Notes: generated by a model not told the origin, from the sequence alone. Shown: positions 2,417 through 18,942, counted from the first letter of the stretch. The stretch is 64,000 nt of DNA from a virus (IMGVR_UViG_3300045988_104912:1-64000); one strand, 5' to 3'. Made by a program: numbers and translations.

Positions 2417-2575
2417 TTAGTTTCTATAGAATATTATAGCTATAATTTCTGCTATTAATCCTATTATAGGAATAAATGCACAAAATTTAATCCAGTCGGG
2501 TATATTATACTCAGCTAAATTAACTAACACACATAGCTGTATACAATACGTTAGGAATAGAAATAATAACATCAT
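2417..2575 (-). CDS. small two-TM membrane protein (52 aa)
   Basis: Hand translation 'MMLLFLFLTYCIQLCVLVNLAEYNIPDWIKFCAFIPIIGLIAEIIAIIFYRN'. Lies directly downstream of tRNA-Met on the same strand. Confidence 0.3.
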   Translation of the reverse strand: MMLLFLFLTYCIQLCVLVNLAEYNIPDWIKFCAFIPIIGLIAEIIAIIFYRN

Positions 2576-2590
2576 AGAGTTAAAATTTAG

Positions 2591-2664
2591 TGGGCCTTAC
2601 CAGGTTTGAACTGATGACCTTCGGATTATGAGTCCGCTGCTCTAACCAGCTGAGCTAAAGGCCC
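2591..2664 (-). tRNA. tRNA-Met (anticodon CAT; could decode Ile if lysidine-modified)
   Basis: The reverse complement folds as GGGCCTT-TA-GCTC-AGCTGGTTA-GAGC-A-GCGGA-CTCATAA-TCCGA-AGGTC-ATCAG-TTCAAAC-CTGGT-AAGGCCC-A. This is a complete cloverleaf, folded by hand. Confidence 0.9.
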
Positions 2665-2671
2665 TAAATTA

Positions 2672-2785
2672 GTTCCTGTAGGGAGATTCGAACTCCCCTG
2701 TCTAAATTATCACCAGAAAGTTATAATGGTGACAAAGTAGCTCTCCATATACCACACAAAGCTAAAGGTGTGTGACTATCAGGAA
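2672..2785 (-). ncRNA. tRNA-like / tRNA-derived element, non-canonical (about 113 nt)
   Basis: The reverse complement has a perfect T-arm, GGGAG-TTCGAAT-CTCCC. A 6-bp acceptor-like closure is present (TTCCTG/CAGGAA). The body is two 7-bp hairpins with 10- and 11-nt loops, not D and anticodon arms. Confidence 0.3.
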
Positions 2786-3067
2786 TCATTTCTCAAGGCA
2801 AAATTATTACCTCGGGCATGATGCAGCTATGACAATTAGTCATACACTGACAGCATTTCAAGCCCAGCTATTGCAGTTAGCCTACCTGTTTATCATTAAC
2901 ATCTGCAAACTGTTAATATTATCAGGTAATATTCATCTTAGACAGGATAATTGGCCTATGATGATGTAGGATTATGCATACCGCCTATGTGAGACAGTTA
3001 AGAGTGCCAAATACGGTTAAAGAACGTTGACAGTATGCACCAGTAGTTAAACATCTCTCAATGGATA

Positions 3068-3436
3068 CTACTGTTTATAGTCTGTACTTGGAGAGTGATA
3101 ATACCAGTAACTAAGACAAGTATGCTCATCTGCAGTGAGACTAAAATCTTGTATGTTCTGGAGACACCATTTGACATACCCAGCATCACTCTTGATAACC
3201 TCTAAGTATGTCTTATACTTGTATTTACCAAAGGTAAATATTCGTAAATCTTCCAAGGTCTTCTGCTTATAATAAGTAATAATATCCTGTGATGGATAAG
3301 TCTTACTTATAGCAGGATTCGTACTCGCAATGACCATAGAACCACTCGTTACTATGATGTGAAAGTAACGCTTCTGATATTGTCCATGACCATATTTGGA
3401 CCTAATGCCTCCTACTAAGACATTATAAGTACTCAA
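3068..3436 (-). CDS. hypothetical protein with DUF3820-like C-terminal motif (122 aa)
   Basis: 'FTFGKYKYKTYLEVIKSDAGYVKWCLQN' resembles the FGKYKG..L.E....Y..W motif of DUF3820 / ExoX-C-terminal-like domains. The only upstream in-frame start is TTG. Confidence 0.55.
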   Translation of the reverse strand: MSTYNVLVGGIRSKYGHGQYQKRYFHIIVTSGSMVIASTNPAISKTYPSQDIITYYKQKTLEDLRIFTFGKYKYKTYLEVIKSDAGYVKWCLQNIQDFSLTADEHTCLSYWYYHSPSTDYKQ

Positions 3437-3646
3437 TTTAAGAGTTAGTGAACAAATTCCATACAGTATATCATTAGCTATTAACGCATATGTTTACATA
3501 AGATTAATACGAAAATGATTCTAAGGTATGAAATTTTGACTGAAATATTCCGAATGGACAGTTACTCCAAAATATATTTTGAGGCTGTAAAAAGTGCCTT
3601 AAAATGCGAAATATAGGGTATTGGGAGATAATCTCTCACTCTGAAC

Positions 3647-7760: not shown

Positions 7761-7833
7761 TGGGAGATGGCTGACTGGTCTAGGCACTTGACTGTTAATC
7801 AAGGTTACGCAGGTTCGAACCCTGTTCTCCCAG
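7761..7833 (+). tRNA. tRNA-Asn (anticodon GTT)
   Basis: Folds as TGGGAGA-TG-GCTG-ACTGGTCT-AGGC-A-CTTGA-CTGTTAA-TCAAG-GTTAC-GCAGG-TTCGAAC-CCTGT-TCTCCCA-G. Complete cloverleaf, folded by hand. Confidence 0.9.
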
Positions 7834-7851
7834 CTAATTAATTTTAACTTT

Positions 7852-11905: not shown

Positions 11906-12478
11906 ATGAAGCTATTTACATATAAGGACTATAATTTAAAGATTTCTGAAGAGGCTTATGCTCTAAGGCCATTTAAGAAACTTGTAGATAGGGATAGAAC
12001 TAAGGATAAAACAAAGGCTATGAAAGAGTTAGCCTACTTGTATTTTATGTACGATCCAAGGTCAGATTTTTCCTTCGAAATTATAGAGGCAGACAGAGAT
12101 TTACGTGTTAAAGATAGTATAGGATTAGATGCTGATTGGAAGCCAGATAAGCAGGTTTTAGAAGCTATAGAACTTTATAAATACCTAACTACAACATCTT
12201 CTTCTTTACTATTACAAGATACAAGAGTTATTATTGATAATATTCGTAATACTTTTAGATCTATAGATTTAACAGAGAAAGACGCTAATGGTAAACTAGT
12301 GTTTAATATAGGTCAAGTTATGACCGCAGTAAAACAAGTCCCTAGTCTTGTTAAGGAACTTACGGATGCTGAAAAAGCTGTATCTAAAGAAATTGAAGAT
12401 ATGGGTACTATGAGAGGTATGAAGCAAAAGGCAATCCTTGAAGATGGGATGAAATCATTCTTAGGAGGAGGTGATTAA
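11906..12478 (+). CDS. hypothetical protein (190 aa), possible small terminase subunit by position
   Basis: Immediately upstream of TerL and TAATG-coupled to it. No motif recognised. Confidence 0.5.
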   Translation: MKLFTYKDYNLKISEEAYALRPFKKLVDRDRTKDKTKAMKELAYLYFMYDPRSDFSFEIIEADRDLRVKDSIGLDADWKPDKQVLEAIELYKYLTTTSSSLLLQDTRVIIDNIRNTFRSIDLTEKDANGKLVFNIGQVMTAVKQVPSLVKELTDAEKAVSKEIEDMGTMRGMKQKAILEDGMKSFLGGGD

Positions 12479-15400
12479 TGGTACTTATAGATACTAATAA
12501 ACATCAGACACCTATTACAGAAGAACTTAGAGATTCTTTATCTACAGAAGTATGGAATGATTTCTTAGAAATTATCACTAATGTAGAATTTATTAAGAAT
12601 CTTATCTCGCCAGATCGCCAACGAGCTAAAGATAGACCCCGTGACTCTTTTGGCAGGATTATAGTAGATATTTGTAAGCCACATATATTAGAGAATATGG
12701 ACTACTTTAGGCCAGCTGCTATACACTATCAAAAATATGGTTGTTATACTAAGCTTCGTCCTGATGCAAATCCTAAATCAGAGTTTGGTATGTGGCTAAC
12801 ACGAGAAGTTCGTAGGTGCTTAGATGGTATGGTCAGACCTGAAGATGGGGAATGGATTCCTGGAGATTTTTATTTCTACTTAAATTATTTGCCTATTATT
12901 CAGACTAAGATACGTAAAGGTACTCGCATAGGTGATCGTGTTGTAGACTTTCCTGAATGCTGGGAAGGTGTTTATCTTAGGGCTCACTATCAATATCAAG
13001 CTCGTAATGGTGGTTTATATGATGATTTTGTAGGGGGAAAGCATTCTGTTGAGATTGCTTCTCGTGGTAAATCAAAGTCATACTATGCAGCTGCCATCCT
13101 ATGTAAATTCTTCCTCTTAGGAGAGAATTCTATTTCTTATGATAAGGTTAAATGTCTTGTAACAGCATATCAGAAGGAGTATCTTATTAAGGACGGTACT
13201 CTTAACAAATTTATTGATGGTATAGATTTCTGTGCTAAAAATACTCAATTTCCTCGTGCTAGACTTAAGAATTCTCTTTCAGAGATGCAGTGGATTTCAG
13301 GGTATATCGATAAGGATTCAATGATTCCTAGGGGTTCTCAAAATGAAGTATTAGGGGTAGCTGTTAAAGATGATCCTGACAAGATTCGTGGTAAACGTTC
13401 AAATAGAATGCTTTATGAAGAGTTTGGTACTTTCCCGAAATTTCTAGATGTATGGCAGACGGCTTTACCTAATGTTCAGGAGAATGCAGCTGCTGCTTTT
13501 GGGCAAGCAATAGCCTTTGGTACAGGAGGTTCTGAGGGTTCAGATTTTATGGGAGCTCTTGAGATGATTAATTATCCGGATGGTTATTCAGTATATTCTC
13601 TACCAAATGTTTTTGATAAAGGAGCTGTAGGAGCTAGGCGAACAATATTCTTCTTTCCTAGTTATCTTAATTCTAAAGGTTTTTACAATGAAGATGGTGT
13701 ATCTGATGTTGTAGGAGCTATTTTAGAAGAGATTAAACATCGTGTAATCCTAAAATATAACTCATCTGATCCTATTCAGCTCACACGTCGTAAAGCTGAG
13801 TATGCATTTACTATCACAGATGCTATTATGCGTAGGGATAGTAATATCTTTCCTTCTGATAAATTAAATGACCGTATTCTAGAATTAGATCAGAATCCTA
13901 AGAGTTTAGACGATATGTGGGTTGGAAGACTTGTTCAGACTAAAGAAGGGAAAGTTGAATTTACTCCAGATGCGGATGTAAAGCCTATTTTAGATTATCC
14001 TCATAAAGATAATAAGCTTGAAGGAGCTGTACATATTAATAAGATGCCCATTAAAGGTCCTGATGGCAAGGTACCTTGGGGACGTTATATAGCAGGTGCT
14101 GACCCTTATGATGATGATGTATCTGACACTATGTCTCTTGGATCAATCTATGTACTAGATTTATTTACTGATGAGCTAGTTTGTGAATATGTAGGTAGAC
14201 CTATGTTTGCAGAGGATTATTATGAAACCTGTAGACGTATTTGTTTATTCTATAATGCTGAATTACTCTATGAGAATAATAAGAAGGGTTTATTTACGTA
14301 TTTTTCTAAAACAAACTGTCTGTATTTGCTATCTGACATTCCTGAGTTTTTAAAAGATAAAGAGATTGTTAAGGGAAATTTCTTTGGTAATAAGGCTCAC
14401 CCATATTCACAGTTAGTATATACTCCAGAGGGACCTAAACTATGGGGAGATATAAAAATAGGAGATAAGTTGTTTAATACTTATGGTGGTATTACTACAG
14501 TGATAGATATTCCATATAATGATAAAACTGATATATACGAAATATATTTACGGGATGGTAGAAAAGTAAAAGCTTCTGCTAATCATTTATGGAATGTTAT
14601 TACTAATGGAAAGACCTACAAAACTATTTCCACTAAAGAAATGAGTCTTTCCTTAACCAGAGATAAAGGAAAATATAAGGAAGCTAAATATTATGTAATA
14701 GGTAATTTAGGTGCTAATTTTAAGGAAGTTCCTTTAAAATTACCAGCTTATTTTATGGGTCTAATGTTAGGAGATGGGTGTTTTACAAGGTCTAGACATC
14801 ACCAAGCTAATTTTGCATCTTCTATATCAGATTTAGATACATATAAAAAATATGTTCCTTATTCTTGTAAAACAATAGATGATAGGCATCATTGGTGGCG
14901 TGTAAAAAATATCGGAAACATACTACAAGAGTTAGGTCTTTCTAAATGTAAATCTCGTACTAAGTTTATTCCAGATTGTTATAAATTCAATTCAATAGAA
15001 AATAGACTAGAACTTCTTAGAGGTCTTCTAGATACAGATGGGTGCATAGGTTATGGAGGAAACCCGGAATATACAACAACTTCAGAGCAGTTAGCACTAG
15101 ATGTTGAATTTGTAGCTAGGAGTTGCGGTATTAATTGTAACATACAAAAATCAACAAATGCGTTTGGACTAGTTTATAAAGTAATTTTTTATACAGATAT
15201 TCCAATGTTTCATTTAGAAAGGAAGTATACTAAGCAAAAACTTACTAAAACTAGAGCTTTTAAGACAGCTATAGTAGATATTAAACTAATTGGGCAAGAG
15301 CTAGCTAAATGTGTTACCGTTGATTCAAAAGATGGATGCTATTTAATTGGAGATTTTGTAACTACACATAACAGTAAAGGAGTTAATGCTACACAACCAG

Positions 15401-15759
15401 TTCAAACATATGGCCGTACACGCATCAGAGACTGGCTTTTAAAGCCTCTTAAGGTTGTAACGAAGGTTACTATAGATGGACATGAAGAAGAGGCAGAAAT
15501 CACTATAAATAACATTAATAGGTGTTATTATAGGGCTCTAATGAAAGAGTTATCTATGTGGAATCCCGATAGCAACTTTGACCGATATGATGCCTTACTA
15601 ATGTTAATGTTACTTCGAGAGCAAAAACTCATGCTTTGTGGTAATTTATCTCCTTCTGAGGTTATCAATGTAGATCAAGCAGATTACTTAGGTAATGATG
15701 ATTTCTTTACCAGGAACTATGATTATAGGTTTGCTAAATACCTACATAAGGATAATTAG
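12478..15759 (+). CDS. terL: terminase large subunit precursor containing an intein (1093 aa)
   Basis: Walker-A-like 'ASRGKSKS'. Typical size once about 326 aa of Hint plus LAGLIDADG insert are removed. Sits upstream of the portal. Confidence 0.88.
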   Translation: MVLIDTNKHQTPITEELRDSLSTEVWNDFLEIITNVEFIKNLISPDRQRAKDRPRDSFGRIIVDICKPHILENMDYFRPAAIHYQKYGCYTKLRPDANPKSEFGMWLTREVRRCLDGMVRPEDGEWIPGDFYFYLNYLPIIQTKIRKGTRIGDRVVDFPECWEGVYLRAHYQYQARNGGLYDDFVGGKHSVEIASRGKSKSYYAAAILCKFFLLGENSISYDKVKCLVTAYQKEYLIKDGTLNKFIDGIDFCAKNTQFPRARLKNSLSEMQWISGYIDKDSMIPRGSQNEVLGVAVKDDPDKIRGKRSNRMLYEEFGTFPKFLDVWQTALPNVQENAAAAFGQAIAFGTGGSEGSDFMGALEMINYPDGYSVYSLPNVFDKGAVGARRTIFFFPSYLNSKGFYNEDGVSDVVGAILEEIKHRVILKYNSSDPIQLTRRKAEYAFTITDAIMRRDSNIFPSDKLNDRILELDQNPKSLDDMWVGRLVQTKEGKVEFTPDADVKPILDYPHKDNKLEGAVHINKMPIKGPDGKVPWGRYIAGADPYDDDVSDTMSLGSIYVLDLFTDELVCEYVGRPMFAEDYYETCRRICLFYNAELLYENNKKGLFTYFSKTNCLYLLSDIPEFLKDKEIVKGNFFGNKAHPYSQLVYTPEGPKLWGDIKIGDKLFNTYGGITTVIDIPYNDKTDIYEIYLRDGRKVKASANHLWNVITNGKTYKTISTKEMSLSLTRDKGKYKEAKYYVIGNLGANFKEVPLKLPAYFMGLMLGDGCFTRSRHHQANFASSISDLDTYKKYVPYSCKTIDDRHHWWRVKNIGNILQELGLSKCKSRTKFIPDCYKFNSIENRLELLRGLLDTDGCIGYGGNPEYTTTSEQLALDVEFVARSCGINCNIQKSTNAFGLVYKVIFYTDIPMFHLERKYTKQKLTKTRAFKTAIVDIKLIGQELAKCVTVDSKDGCYLIGDFVTTHNSKGVNATQPVQTYGRTRIRDWLLKPLKVVTKVTIDGHEEEAEITINNINRCYYRALMKELSMWNPDSNFDRYDALLMLMLLREQKLMLCGNLSPSEVINVDQADYLGNDDFFTRNYDYRFAKYLHKDN
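14395..15372 (+). mobile_element. intein with LAGLIDADG homing-endonuclease domain (about 326 aa; the N-terminal boundary could be 14407)
   Basis: Block A 'AHPYSQLVYTPEG'. Block B 'GRKVKASANHLW'. LAGLIDADG motifs 'YFMGLMLGDGCF' and 'LLRGLLDTDGCIG'. Block F 'AKCVTVDSKDGCYLIG'. Block G 'FVTTHN', followed by Ser. Confidence 0.8.
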
Positions 15760-15874: not shown

Positions 15875-16543
15875 ATGCACAAGAATAAGTTGAATGGGAA
15901 AGTATACATAGGAATTACTTCTAAAGATGACCCTAATAAAAGGTGGTTAAATGGAAAAGGTTATAACCATTCAACTCTTTTTAAGAAGGCTGTTAAAAAA
16001 TATGGATGGGATTCTTTTGAGCATATAATTTTATTTGATAACTTAAATAAAATCTCTGCTTGTTTAATTGAAATAGACTTAATATTTTATTATCAGAAAA
16101 TCCAGATGTCTTATAATATCAATCTAGGAGGTGAAGGTAGTGAATCTATGTCTAGCGAAACTAAGCAGAAAATTTCTCAAACCTTAAAGAATCATCCTGT
16201 TTCAGAGGAGACGAGAGCTAAAATTTCTAAAAAAGTTTCTGGAGAGAGACATGGGAATTGGGGCAAACCTCTATCTCCGGAAACTAGAGCTCGTATAGGA
16301 AAGGCTAATTCTGGAGAAAAGAACGGAATGTATGGACATAAATTTACTCCTGAGGAAATAGAGAGGATGCGCTTTCAAAGAGCTAAACCAATTCTTCAAT
16401 ATTCTAAAGAAGGTACGTTTATAAAAGAATGGCCTTCTGCTGGAGAAGTTGGTCGGACTTGGGGAGTATGTTATAAGAGTATAAGTAAGTGTTGTCTAGG
16501 AAAGAGGAAGACAGCTCTTGGGTATGTTTGGAAATATAAATAA
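15875..16543 (+). CDS. free-standing GIY-YIG homing endonuclease with NUMOD3-like repeats (222 aa from the first ATG)
   Basis: 'NGKVYIGIT' (YIG), repeated 'ETRAKIS / ETRARIG' helices, and C-terminal 'GYVWKY'. The GIY-like 'AIYKVY' is encoded in frame just upstream of the ATG. Confidence 0.85.
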   Translation: MHKNKLNGKVYIGITSKDDPNKRWLNGKGYNHSTLFKKAVKKYGWDSFEHIILFDNLNKISACLIEIDLIFYYQKIQMSYNINLGGEGSESMSSETKQKISQTLKNHPVSEETRAKISKKVSGERHGNWGKPLSPETRARIGKANSGEKNGMYGHKFTPEEIERMRFQRAKPILQYSKEGTFIKEWPSAGEVGRTWGVCYKSISKCCLGKRKTALGYVWKYK

Positions 16544-16545
16544 TT

Positions 16546-18942
16546 ATGATTGATTTAAGAAATTTACCCCCGCAAATGCTTCCTTATAGTAAGAAAACAA
16601 AGGCTTGGAGGAAACAGCATTGTGATTGGGCCGACCGTCGTACTTACTATTTTGGCAATATGGTGCGGAATTCTCTGTTGAAGAAGAGAATTAACTATAA
16701 TCTCATAAATGGTGTTTTAGATATGAGAGACGTAGAGTTAATTCTTAATCCAGACAATGTCAATGCATTATATGTTCCAGAATCTATTCAGCATTTCCCT
16801 ATTATGAACTCAAAGCTTCATGTTCTTCAAGGAGAAGAAGCGAAGAGAAGATTCGAATTTAAAGTTGTTGTAACTAATCCTAATTCTATTTCAGAGATAG
16901 AGAATAGTAAATTAGTAATGCTCCAAGAACAAGTTCAGTCGATGATAGAAGATGAAAACTTGTCAGAGGAGGAGTTTAATAAAGAACTAGATAAGTTATC
17001 TTACTATTTTGATTATCAATGGCAAGATATTATCGAAATGAGAGCTAGTACTGTTCTTTCTCATTACATGAAAGAGCTAAACATACCCAAAATATTTAAT
17101 GATGGGTTTATGGATGCAATGATTTGTGGTGAGGAAATCTATCAATGTGATATTGTTGGGGGAGAACCTACTTTTGAAAGACTTAATCCTTTAAAAGTTC
17201 ATATTTTCAAAAATGGTTTTTCTAATAAAGTTGAGGATGCAGATCTAATAATACTTATAGACTTTTGGAGTCCAGGTAGAATCTTAGATACTTACTTTGA
17301 TGTTCTATCTAAAAAAGATGTTGACAGTATAGATAAGCTAGCTAGTACTTTTAGTAGTGATTCTATGTACAATATTGATGAAAGAAATGCCTTTATTAAT
17401 ACTGCTGAGATTGATGGTACAGACATCTCAGGAGGTACTATAATAGAGAATTTTCTACTGATGGGACAATCTGGATTTTCAGCAACGAGTAATTACTATG
17501 ATCTTCAAGGTAATATTAGAGTATTAAGACTTTATTGGAAAAGTAAGAGAAAGATCAAGAAGGTAAAATCTTATGATCCGGAGACTGGCGAAGAGCTCTT
17601 TGATTTTTATCCAGAAACCTACATTATAGATAAAGGAGCTGGTGAAGAAGAGGAGATCTTTTGGATTAATGAAGCATGGGAAGGTACTAAAATAGGTCCA
17701 GATATTTATGTTAACATGAGACCTAGGATAGTACAGTATAATAGACTTTCTAATCCATCTAGATGTCATTTTGGTATTGTAGGATCTATGTATAACCTTA
17801 ATGATTCTAGACCTTTCTCTTTAGTAGATATGATGAAGCCTTTTGCTTATTTTTACGACGTTATCTACGATAGACTTAATAAAGCTATTGCTGCTAACTG
17901 GGGTAAAATTGTAAAGCTAGATCTTGCTATGGTTCCTAAAGGTTGGGAGATAGATAAGTGGTTATACTATGCAAAAGTAAATCATGTTGCTGTTACAGAT
18001 AGCTTTAAGGAGGGAAATGGAGGAGCTGCTCAAGGTAAGATTGTAGGAGCTCTAAATACTCAGTCTAATGGTGTTATAGATGCTGAACAGGGTAATTATA
18101 TTCAGGAACACATTAATCTCCTAGAATTCATTAAAAATGAGATGGGAGAGGTTGCTGGTATTACTCGACAGCGAGAGGGTCAGATTAGTAATCGTGAAAC
18201 TGTTGGTGGTGTTGAAAGATCAAATTTACAATCTTCTCATATTACAGAATGGTTATTTACGATGCATGATGATGTTAAAAGGAGAGCTCTTGAATGTTTC
18301 TTAGAGACAGCTAAAATAGCTATGAGAGGTAGGAATAAGAAATTCCAGTATATCACCTCTGATGGGGCTATAAAATCTCTTGAAATTGATGGAGACACTT
18401 TTGCAGATAGCGACTATGGAATTGTAGTAGATGCCTCTCCTGAAACTCAGAATCTCGCTTCAAAACTTGATGCTTTAGCACAAGCTGCTTTGCAGAATCA
18501 AACTCTCTCATTCTCTTCAATAATGAAGATTTATACTTCATCATCTCTGTCAGAGATTCGTAGGACTATTGAAAAAGACGAGCAGGCTATTCAAGAACGT
18601 CAAGCTGAACAAGCTCAGCAGGAACAAGAAATAGCACAGCAACAGATGCAGACTCAGATGGAAATGAAGCAGGCTGAGATGAATTTCCAAGATATGCTTA
18701 ATCAGCGCGATAATGATACTAAGATTCTTATTGAGCATATTAAACAATCTGGAAATACAGAGAATGAAGTCCCAGAAGTTCAAGACAACTCTATGGAACG
18801 AGCGAAGTTAGATGAACAGATAAGGCAGTTTAATGAAAGATTAGCTTTTGATAAAACTAAGTTATCAAAGGAGATAGACATTAAAGAAAAAGATCTTGCT
18901 ATTAAACGTGCCAAGCCTAAACCATCTAGCAATAGTAAATAA
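16546..18942 (+). CDS. portal protein candidate (798 aa)
   Basis: Size and position next to TerL. Gln/Glu-rich coiled C-terminus. The assignment rests on synteny only. Confidence 0.65.
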   Translation: MIDLRNLPPQMLPYSKKTKAWRKQHCDWADRRTYYFGNMVRNSLLKKRINYNLINGVLDMRDVELILNPDNVNALYVPESIQHFPIMNSKLHVLQGEEAKRRFEFKVVVTNPNSISEIENSKLVMLQEQVQSMIEDENLSEEEFNKELDKLSYYFDYQWQDIIEMRASTVLSHYMKELNIPKIFNDGFMDAMICGEEIYQCDIVGGEPTFERLNPLKVHIFKNGFSNKVEDADLIILIDFWSPGRILDTYFDVLSKKDVDSIDKLASTFSSDSMYNIDERNAFINTAEIDGTDISGGTIIENFLLMGQSGFSATSNYYDLQGNIRVLRLYWKSKRKIKKVKSYDPETGEELFDFYPETYIIDKGAGEEEEIFWINEAWEGTKIGPDIYVNMRPRIVQYNRLSNPSRCHFGIVGSMYNLNDSRPFSLVDMMKPFAYFYDVIYDRLNKAIAANWGKIVKLDLAMVPKGWEIDKWLYYAKVNHVAVTDSFKEGNGGAAQGKIVGALNTQSNGVIDAEQGNYIQEHINLLEFIKNEMGEVAGITRQREGQISNRETVGGVERSNLQSSHITEWLFTMHDDVKRRALECFLETAKIAMRGRNKKFQYITSDGAIKSLEIDGDTFADSDYGIVVDASPETQNLASKLDALAQAALQNQTLSFSSIMKIYTSSSLSEIRRTIEKDEQAIQERQAEQAQQEQEIAQQQMQTQMEMKQAEMNFQDMLNQRDNDTKILIEHIKQSGNTENEVPEVQDNSMERAKLDEQIRQFNERLAFDKTKLSKEIDIKEKDLAIKRAKPKPSSNSK

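Follow-up and report, generated by a model that had tools for sequence, protein, structure and literature searches.

The window analysed here is a viral DNA stretch of 64,000 nucleotides (IMGVR_UViG_3300045988_104912:1-64000). It contains a gene for the large subunit of the terminase (TerL), the open reading frame (ORF) of which is enlarged by an in-frame insert. Judging from the sequence, this insert is very probably a class 3 intein of mobile type located in the nuclease domain of TerL. The best protein matches of the terminase belong to crAss-like phages (Crassvirales, Steigviridae, crAss001-like group), and the nearest relative is the uncultured phage cr108_1, with ~81% nucleotide identity across the terminase-portal region. 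After removal of the insert, the 767-aa extein matches the PHROG 6681 family, terminase large subunit (E 4.4e-89), and is 78% identical to the annotated TerL of cr108_1, which is of equal length (767 aa). A sequence search of the Protein Data Bank (PDB) with the spliced 767-aa TerL gave no match at E up to 1. The Walker A motif in the N-extein of the window (ASRGKSKS; ASRGKSKSY) is empty of intein. The positions of the features are given in Table 1.

Table 1. Intein-bearing terminase gene and neighbouring features (positions counted from the first nucleotide of the window).
Feature	Position	Strand	Remarks
TerL precursor ORF	12478..15759	+	1093 aa including the intein; stop codon 15757..15759
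N-extein	12478..14394	+	639 aa; ATPase domain and first two-thirds of the nuclease domain; C-terminal end ...FFGNK; from the cr108_1 alignment
Intein	14395..15372	+	326 aa; Hint splicing domain interrupted by a homing endonuclease of the LAGLIDADG type
Ala1 (GCT)	14395..14397	+	Non-nucleophilic first intein residue; junction GNK/A from homologues; 1:1 register with MchDnaB1 and MsmDnaB1
Block A	starts 14395	+	AHPYSQLVYTPEG
Ser5	14407..14409	+	Proposed alternative class 1 start, rejected as start
Block B	14557..14592	+	GRKVKASANHLW; Ser61 (B7), His64 (B10) at 14584, Trp66 (B12) at 14590
LAGLIDADG homing endonuclease domain	14722..15264 (approximate)	+	Pfam LAGLIDADG_3, E 1.2e-9
LAGLIDADG motif LMLGDGCF	14761..14784	+	Acidic residue kept
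LAGLIDADG motif LLDTDGCI	15025..15048	+	Acidic residue kept
Block F AKCVTVD	15304..15324	+	Cys306 (F4) at 15310..15312, putative initiating nucleophile
Block G FVTTHN	15355..15372	+	Thr324 (G5) at 15364..15366, His325 (G6), Asn326 (G7)
Asn326 (AAC)	ends 15372	+	Last intein residue, followed by Ser (AGT) at 15373
C-extein	15373..15756	+	128 aa; Ser+1 (AGT, 15373..15375), onward SKGVNATQP; aligned to TerL of cr108_1, cr111_1 and DAC15
Free-standing GIY-YIG/NUMOD3 homing endonuclease gene	15875..16543	+	222 aa; PHROG 314, E 3e-29; Pfam NUMOD3, E 7.5e-15
Portal gene	16546..18942		GIY-YIG/NUMOD3 gene lies between TerL and portal
tRNA-Met (CAT)	2590..2664	-	Upstream of the packaging module
tRNA-Asn (GTT)	7761..7834	+	Upstream of the packaging module

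A first-pass annotation, made by a model from the sequence alone, had described a Hint plus LAGLIDADG insert that interrupts TerL and ends with FVTTHN followed by Ser. Direct reading of the window confirmed the insert with its limits, and the motifs quoted for blocks A, B, F and G were all present where they had been placed. The TerL ORF is uninterrupted, and all splicing blocks and both acidic residues of the LAGLIDADG motifs are intact. The intein is more AT-rich than its surroundings: its GC fraction is 0.31, compared with 0.357 and 0.354 in the exteins and 0.365 in the whole window. Copies 99-100% identical to the window intein were found on three IMG/VR phage contigs of 70-103 kb, which means that the element is intact and circulating.

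Ala1, His64, Trp66, Cys306, Thr324, His325, Asn326 and Ser+1 were all read directly from the window. According to Tori et al. (PMC2807308), class 3 inteins are defined by a non-nucleophilic residue 1 that co-varies with a Trp-Cys-Thr (WCT) triplet and by Ser or Thr at position +1. Each of these elements is found in the window intein, namely, Ala at position 1, Trp at B12, Cys at F4, Thr at G5, and Ser at +1, in agreement with the class proposed in the first-pass annotation. The mention there that the DnaB intein from mycobacteriophage Bethlehem is the class 3 prototype also agrees with PMC2807308. Class 1 inteins have Cys, Ser or Thr at position 1, where the window has Ala, and class 2 (KlbA-type) inteins combine Ala1 with the absence of the WCT triplet, which is present here.

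Position 1 was fixed in three independent ways: by intein-free homologues, by the AHPY start at five TerL sites, and by the register with the crystallised class 3 inteins MchDnaB1 and MsmDnaB1. In a four-way TerL alignment, the insert is exposed as a gap, and the three phages that are intein-free at this site read FFGNKA-RGVNAT (cr108_1), YGNKS-KGVQAT (cr111_1), and VGNQS-KGFAAN (DAC15). A survey of 119 intein-free C-termini of crAss-like TerL revealed a common six-residue motif, G-[NS]-x-x-K-G, with Ala (~45), Ser (~47) or another residue in its fourth position. Because only the parse GNK/A…HN/SKG (the slash marks a junction here and below) keeps the length of this motif together with an Asn end followed by a nucleophile, Ala is assigned as intein residue 1 and Ser as +1. 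The parse GNKA/H…HNS/KG, which would match the Ala of cr108_1, was rejected, since the intein would end in Ser, with Lys at +1. Relatives located at other TerL sites retain the AHPY start, while the extein residue at -1 varies by site (K, N, T, E, G, V); therefore, the Ala travels with the intein.

Some divergence was noted beside the insertion point. Just past it, the empty site of cr108_1 has Ala-Arg (GCTCGT), compared with Ser-Lys (AGTAAA) in the window. Identity of the two sequences, counted by hand, is ~63% over 30 nt downstream (15373..15402) and 90% over 30 nt upstream. Such a flank pattern would fit either co-conversion during homing or a resistant allele unable to support splicing.

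The structure of the intein was modelled using the AlphaFold2 program with 22 homologues (pLDDT 92.3, pTM 0.91). According to the Foldseek search against the PDB, the top matches of the model are the bifunctional inteins TliVMA, PI-SceI, PhoVMA and PI-PfuI (E 7.7e-18 to 6e-11), followed by I-DmoI for the endonuclease part and by gp41-1 and MchDnaB-1 for the Hint part. A Hint fold with blocks A, B, F and G is thus indicated by the AlphaFold2 model, by Foldseek, and by a profile comparison with solved inteins described below. The endonuclease part has the characters of the LAGLIDADG family, namely, two helices with acidic residues (123-132 and 206-220 in the model) in an alpha-beta-beta-alpha-beta-beta-alpha pseudo-dimer, as seen from the motifs, the Pfam match, and the Foldseek similarity to I-DmoI and PI-SceI; DNA cleavage by this domain is a prediction.

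For the comparison of the splicing domain, a mini-intein profile was built from 13 members with the endonuclease removed and searched against all PDB sequences. The top match was gp41-1 (E 7.5e-20 and 8.8e-17). It was followed by two class 3 inteins, MchDnaB1 (6rix; E 2.7e-16, positions 4-145 on 4-145) and MsmDnaB1 (6bs8; E 3.8e-16), and all remaining solved inteins had E 5e-6 or worse. In the alignment with MchDnaB1, residue 1 falls on residue 1, and His64, Trp66, Cys306, Thr324 and Asn326 fall on His65, Trp67, Cys124, Thr143 and Asn145, respectively; window His325 is aligned with His144. In MchDnaB1, Cys124, His65 and Thr143 form the catalytic triad, and Trp67 is the Trp of the WCT triplet (Beyer et al., PMC7664689). 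The first-pass placement of His at B10, Trp at B12, Cys at F4 and Thr at G5 is therefore right, since it matches His65, Trp67, Cys124 and Thr143, and Ala, not Cys, Ser or Thr, at position 1 is upheld both by the homologue junctions and by the register with MchDnaB1 and MsmDnaB1.

Conservation of the key residues was assessed in a set of ~126 relatives, which comprised 44 proteins from a search of 5.8 billion proteins, 80 IMG/VR loci, cr111_1, and DAC15. The positions were extracted with hidden Markov models of the N-lobe and the C-lobe. His at B10 was present in 110/110 relatives and Cys at F4 in 116/116, and Trp occupied B12 in 101 of the 109 relatives (Phe in 6). In block G, Thr at G5 (115/115), His at G6 (113/115) and Asn at G7 (115/115) were conserved, these three values being partly selected by the search pattern. 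Position 1 was a non-nucleophile in 103/108 relatives, most often Ala (76), and Ser (52), Thr (49) or Cys (14) was found at +1. A non-nucleophile at position 1 combined with WCT was characteristic of 89 of the 98 complete relatives, while a nucleophile at position 1 occurred together with WCT in 4/98. Given the matches of the profile to solved inteins (E 7.5e-20 to 1.5e-15) and the Pfam LAGLIDADG_3 and AlphaFold2/Foldseek matches, with key residues invariant or nearly so in the ~126 relatives, the intein pattern is not due to chance.

A separate subgroup of relatives at the Walker A site (P0015, P0021, P0026, P0029) has Phe instead of Trp at B12 (GHLF) and keeps the Ala start. Cys at F4 and Thr at G5 are kept in P0021, its sole complete member, and the subgroup represents a naturally occurring "FCT" form of the class 3 triplet.

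Several observations weigh against the class 3 reading. Curated models of inteins give weak scores or none: the Pfam Intein_splicing model is sub-threshold (17 bits, gathering score 35.8), no intein model of NCBIfam is matched, and the intein-bearing DnaB model of that collection is far sub-threshold (29.7 bits, cut-off 780). In addition, the 80 IMG/VR loci were retrieved by a pattern ending in THN, so that their conservation at G5-G7 is partly built in; F4, B12 and position 1 lay outside this pattern. Finally, transfer of WCT together with Ala1 to gp41-1, a related intein of class 1, gave no splicing (PMC7664689). Because such a graft on a class 1 intein does not on its own result in class 3 splicing, the class 3 mechanism was deduced here from family membership. 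The WCT motif is necessary but not sufficient, and the proposed mechanism draws on the place of the window intein in a clade found in nature, where splicing is apparently needed by an essential gene.

The observed anatomy, boundaries, residue pattern and fold, together with the kinship to characterised class 3 inteins, suggest the following route of splicing and homing. TerL would be translated as a precursor of 1093 aa. The thiol of Cys306 (F4), positioned with His64 (B10) and Thr324 (G5), would attack the Lys639-Ala640 peptide bond, with Trp66 (B12) helping to activate the junction. The N-extein would thereby be transferred to Cys306 as a thioester and then received by Ser+1 (Ser966) through transesterification. 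Cyclisation of Asn326, helped by His325, would release the intein, and an O-to-N shift would restore a normal Lys-Ser bond, yielding the 767-aa TerL with the sequence ...FFGNK-SKGVNAT.... The LAGLIDADG endonuclease of the excised intein presumably cuts intein-free TerL alleles in co-infection, and the element would be copied in by repair.

Other explanations of the insert were considered. It might be decayed or non-splicing, in which case either TerL would be inactive (the phage being defective) or the mature protein would tolerate the insert. The sequence is indeed metagenomic, and splicing of the insert, like viability of the phage, is presumed. Nevertheless, this explanation seems very unlikely. 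The ORF, the splicing blocks and the acidic residues of both LAGLIDADG motifs are preserved, near-identical copies are present on three long phage contigs, and the insert interrupts a conserved nuclease-domain motif ~40 residues past YENNKKG. Moreover, a sister intein is carried inside the essential Walker A loop by the cultured phages DAC15 and DAC17.

According to a second explanation, the intein is of class 2 (KlbA-like), and the +1 nucleophile attacks the N-terminal junction directly, without a block F thioester. The Ala at position 1, which KlbA inteins share, would fit this route. However, KlbA inteins use Cys+1 for the direct attack, and Ser, which is the +1 residue here, is a weaker nucleophile than Cys for direct attack on an amide. 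The Cys at F4 is invariant among the relatives, and of the solved relatives, those of class 3 are the closest. KlbA inteins, for their part, form a group without an N-terminal nucleophile and outside the group with the WCT triplet (PMC2807308), and a class 2 route can be regarded as highly improbable for the window intein.

The first-pass annotation had also offered the Ser encoded at 14407, said to lie six residues after Ala, as an alternative class 1 start; this Ser is actually intein residue 5, four residues after Ala1. A class 1 intein starting at Ser5, with an N-O acyl shift by this residue and an incidental Cys in block F, is hardly credible even though a Ser does stand four residues into the insert and the four complete relatives with a nucleophile at position 1 plus WCT indicate that mixed cases exist in the wider family, since such a start would leave AHPY in the mature TerL, four residues beyond the motif length common to the 119 empty alleles, D, Y or T stands in place of Ser5 in the close site-mates P0002, P0006, P0013 and L008, and the first residue is as far from the conserved T10-P11 as gp41-1 Cys1 and MchDnaB1 residue 1 are only when Ala is taken as residue 1. 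A class 3 intein that begins with Ala1 is thus the preferred reading.

With regard to the place of the insertion within the terminase fold, an intein-free homologue (P0045) was modelled using AlphaFold2 (pLDDT 79), and Foldseek matched the model with the terminase nuclease domains of T4 and RB49 gp17, G20c, E217 and P74-26. The insertion point of the window intein is in a short turn that precedes a long helix, ~40 residues past the invariant YENNKKG motif, the Glu of which is assumed to be the catalytic Glu of the nuclease. The P-loop is where most class 3 inteins are located (Tori et al., PMC2807308), whereas the window intein is not.

The same intein lineage was found at no fewer than five TerL sites, that is, at least five, in crAss-like phages (including cr111_1, DAC15, P0009, P0011, P0014, P0016 and P0033). 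These sites are the Walker A loop, with three offsets (RGK/SKSY, RG/CSKSY and GxGK/SFS); KDxPDx/xRGKR (for example, KDNPDV/CRGKR); a site upstream of the first Asp motif of the nuclease (.../CTGAIEIY); YE/xNKKG (for example, MYE/CNKKG), beside the Glu assumed to be catalytic; and GNK/SKG (site e), which is the window's own site. Across the listed sites, +1 is occupied by Ser or Cys, and residue -1 is as diverse as K, N, T, E, G and V. In a neighbour-joining tree, constructed without support values, the crAss TerL inteins were placed apart from PhoH and helicase inteins, and subclades of site-e and site-d inteins were seen. Chances are about even that one class 3 lineage has spread within the single gene TerL; the marks of this lineage are the start AHPY(S/D)xxV(Y)TPxG and the blocks KCVTVD and TTHN. 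If intragenic jumps of this kind have truly occurred, crAss-like TerL would represent a natural series on the tolerance of class 3 inteins to new junctions and on endonuclease retargeting, with DAC15, which is cultivable, as the phage for testing.

When the DNA flanks of window site e and of the cr111_1 Walker A site were compared, only TAAR/AGTAA was shared (~9/10 bases). This likeness was set aside as evidence and kept as a lead only, since it is expected from Lys/Ser-Lys codons in an AT-rich genome.

Some of the other intein-bearing terminases deserve separate description. In P0013 (18 contigs, the longest of 104,593 bp), a TerL fragment contains an intein end at YE/CNKKG and, ~45 residues on, a second intein start at GNT/AHPY; two inteins of class 3 type are thus present in one TerL nuclease domain. 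The intein-bearing TerL of cr111_1 lies at L002:1486-4782 and that of DAC15 at L003:2495-5824. RefSeq names the 1110-aa DAC15 gp106 (NC_055832.1, L003:2495-5827) "DarB-like antirestriction", while this protein is a TerL with a 346-aa Walker A intein (ATRGAGK/AHPYSEY…IVTHN/SFSCASML). One more crAss-like TerL with a related Walker A intein (L013; IMGVR_UViG_3300032038_001026, 2501-3553) has in-frame TAG codons in both the intein and the extein, as in AHPYS(TAG)EIY, where relatives have Gln in place of the TAG. This pattern points to recoding of TAG, which is on record for some crAss-like phages.

As for the neighbouring genes, the free-standing GIY-YIG/NUMOD3 homing endonuclease gene of the window is absent from cr108_1, where the gap between TerL and portal is ~100 nt. 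DAC15 has a homologue at the same position with 34% identity.

Class 3 inteins in phage large terminases were listed already in 2009 (PMC2807308), and they are common at the mycobacteriophage TerL1 sites c, d and e (PMC5050341). A 2025 survey recorded 287 class 3 inteins in actinobacteriophages, those with canonical LAGLIDADG being almost all in TerL and Cas4 (bioRxiv 10.1101/2025.01.02.630785). Class 3 inteins in phage terminases are therefore already known, as are inteins in crAss-like TerL (2021), and the splicing mechanism itself is not new. In the literature checked, records of class 3 inteins come mainly from actinobacteria and the phages of these bacteria, and the window intein would extend the class to the phage order that is most abundant in the human gut and to a place outside the usual P-loop sites (PMC2807308). 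For annotation, recognition of the intein yields the true 767-aa terminase, and the TerL of DAC15 is currently mislabelled.

Among characterised systems, MchDnaB1 and MsmDnaB1 (PDB 6rix/6riy, 6bs8) are similar to the window intein in that the Hint domain is aligned end to end (E ~1e-16) with an identical catalytic register, at ~23% identity over the aligned parts. They differ in being mini-inteins without an endonuclease, located in a bacterial DnaB helicase, whereas the window intein contains LAGLIDADG and lies in the nuclease domain of a phage terminase. Of the solved relatives, the gp41-1 intein (PDB 6qaz; engineered WCT version 6riz) scores best for the N-terminal lobe (E 7.5e-20); it is of phage type and has Thr at G5. 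Unlike the window intein, it belongs to class 1 and is split in nature, with Cys1, Phe at B12 and Asp at F4, and its WCT-grafted version does not splice.

The prototype of the class, the mycobacteriophage Bethlehem DnaB intein (PMC2807308), resembles the window intein in its phage origin, in having Ser or Thr at +1, and in combining the WCT triplet with a residue 1 that is not a nucleophile. It has Pro1 and lies in a helicase P-loop, in contrast to Ala1 and a location outside any nucleotide-binding loop in the window. The TerL1-c, -d and -e class 3 inteins of actinobacteriophages (PMC5050341; bioRxiv 10.1101/2025.01.02.630785) correspond to the window intein in the host protein, the class, the presence of LAGLIDADG, and several sites per gene, the inteins being compared by description only. 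The carriers are different, namely, actinobacteriophages in one case and Crassvirales on Bacteroidota in the other, and the TerL families are unrelated in sequence.

The inteins of crAss-like TerL reported by Yutin et al. in 2021 (PMC7886860) are found in the same order and gene and include two-intein TerL genes and TAG-recoded examples, comparable with P0013 and L013. They are characterised by these authors as typical of the Delta group and of "Hint-Hop type", with no splicing class given in the passages that mention inteins, whereas the window intein is carried by a member of Steigviridae.

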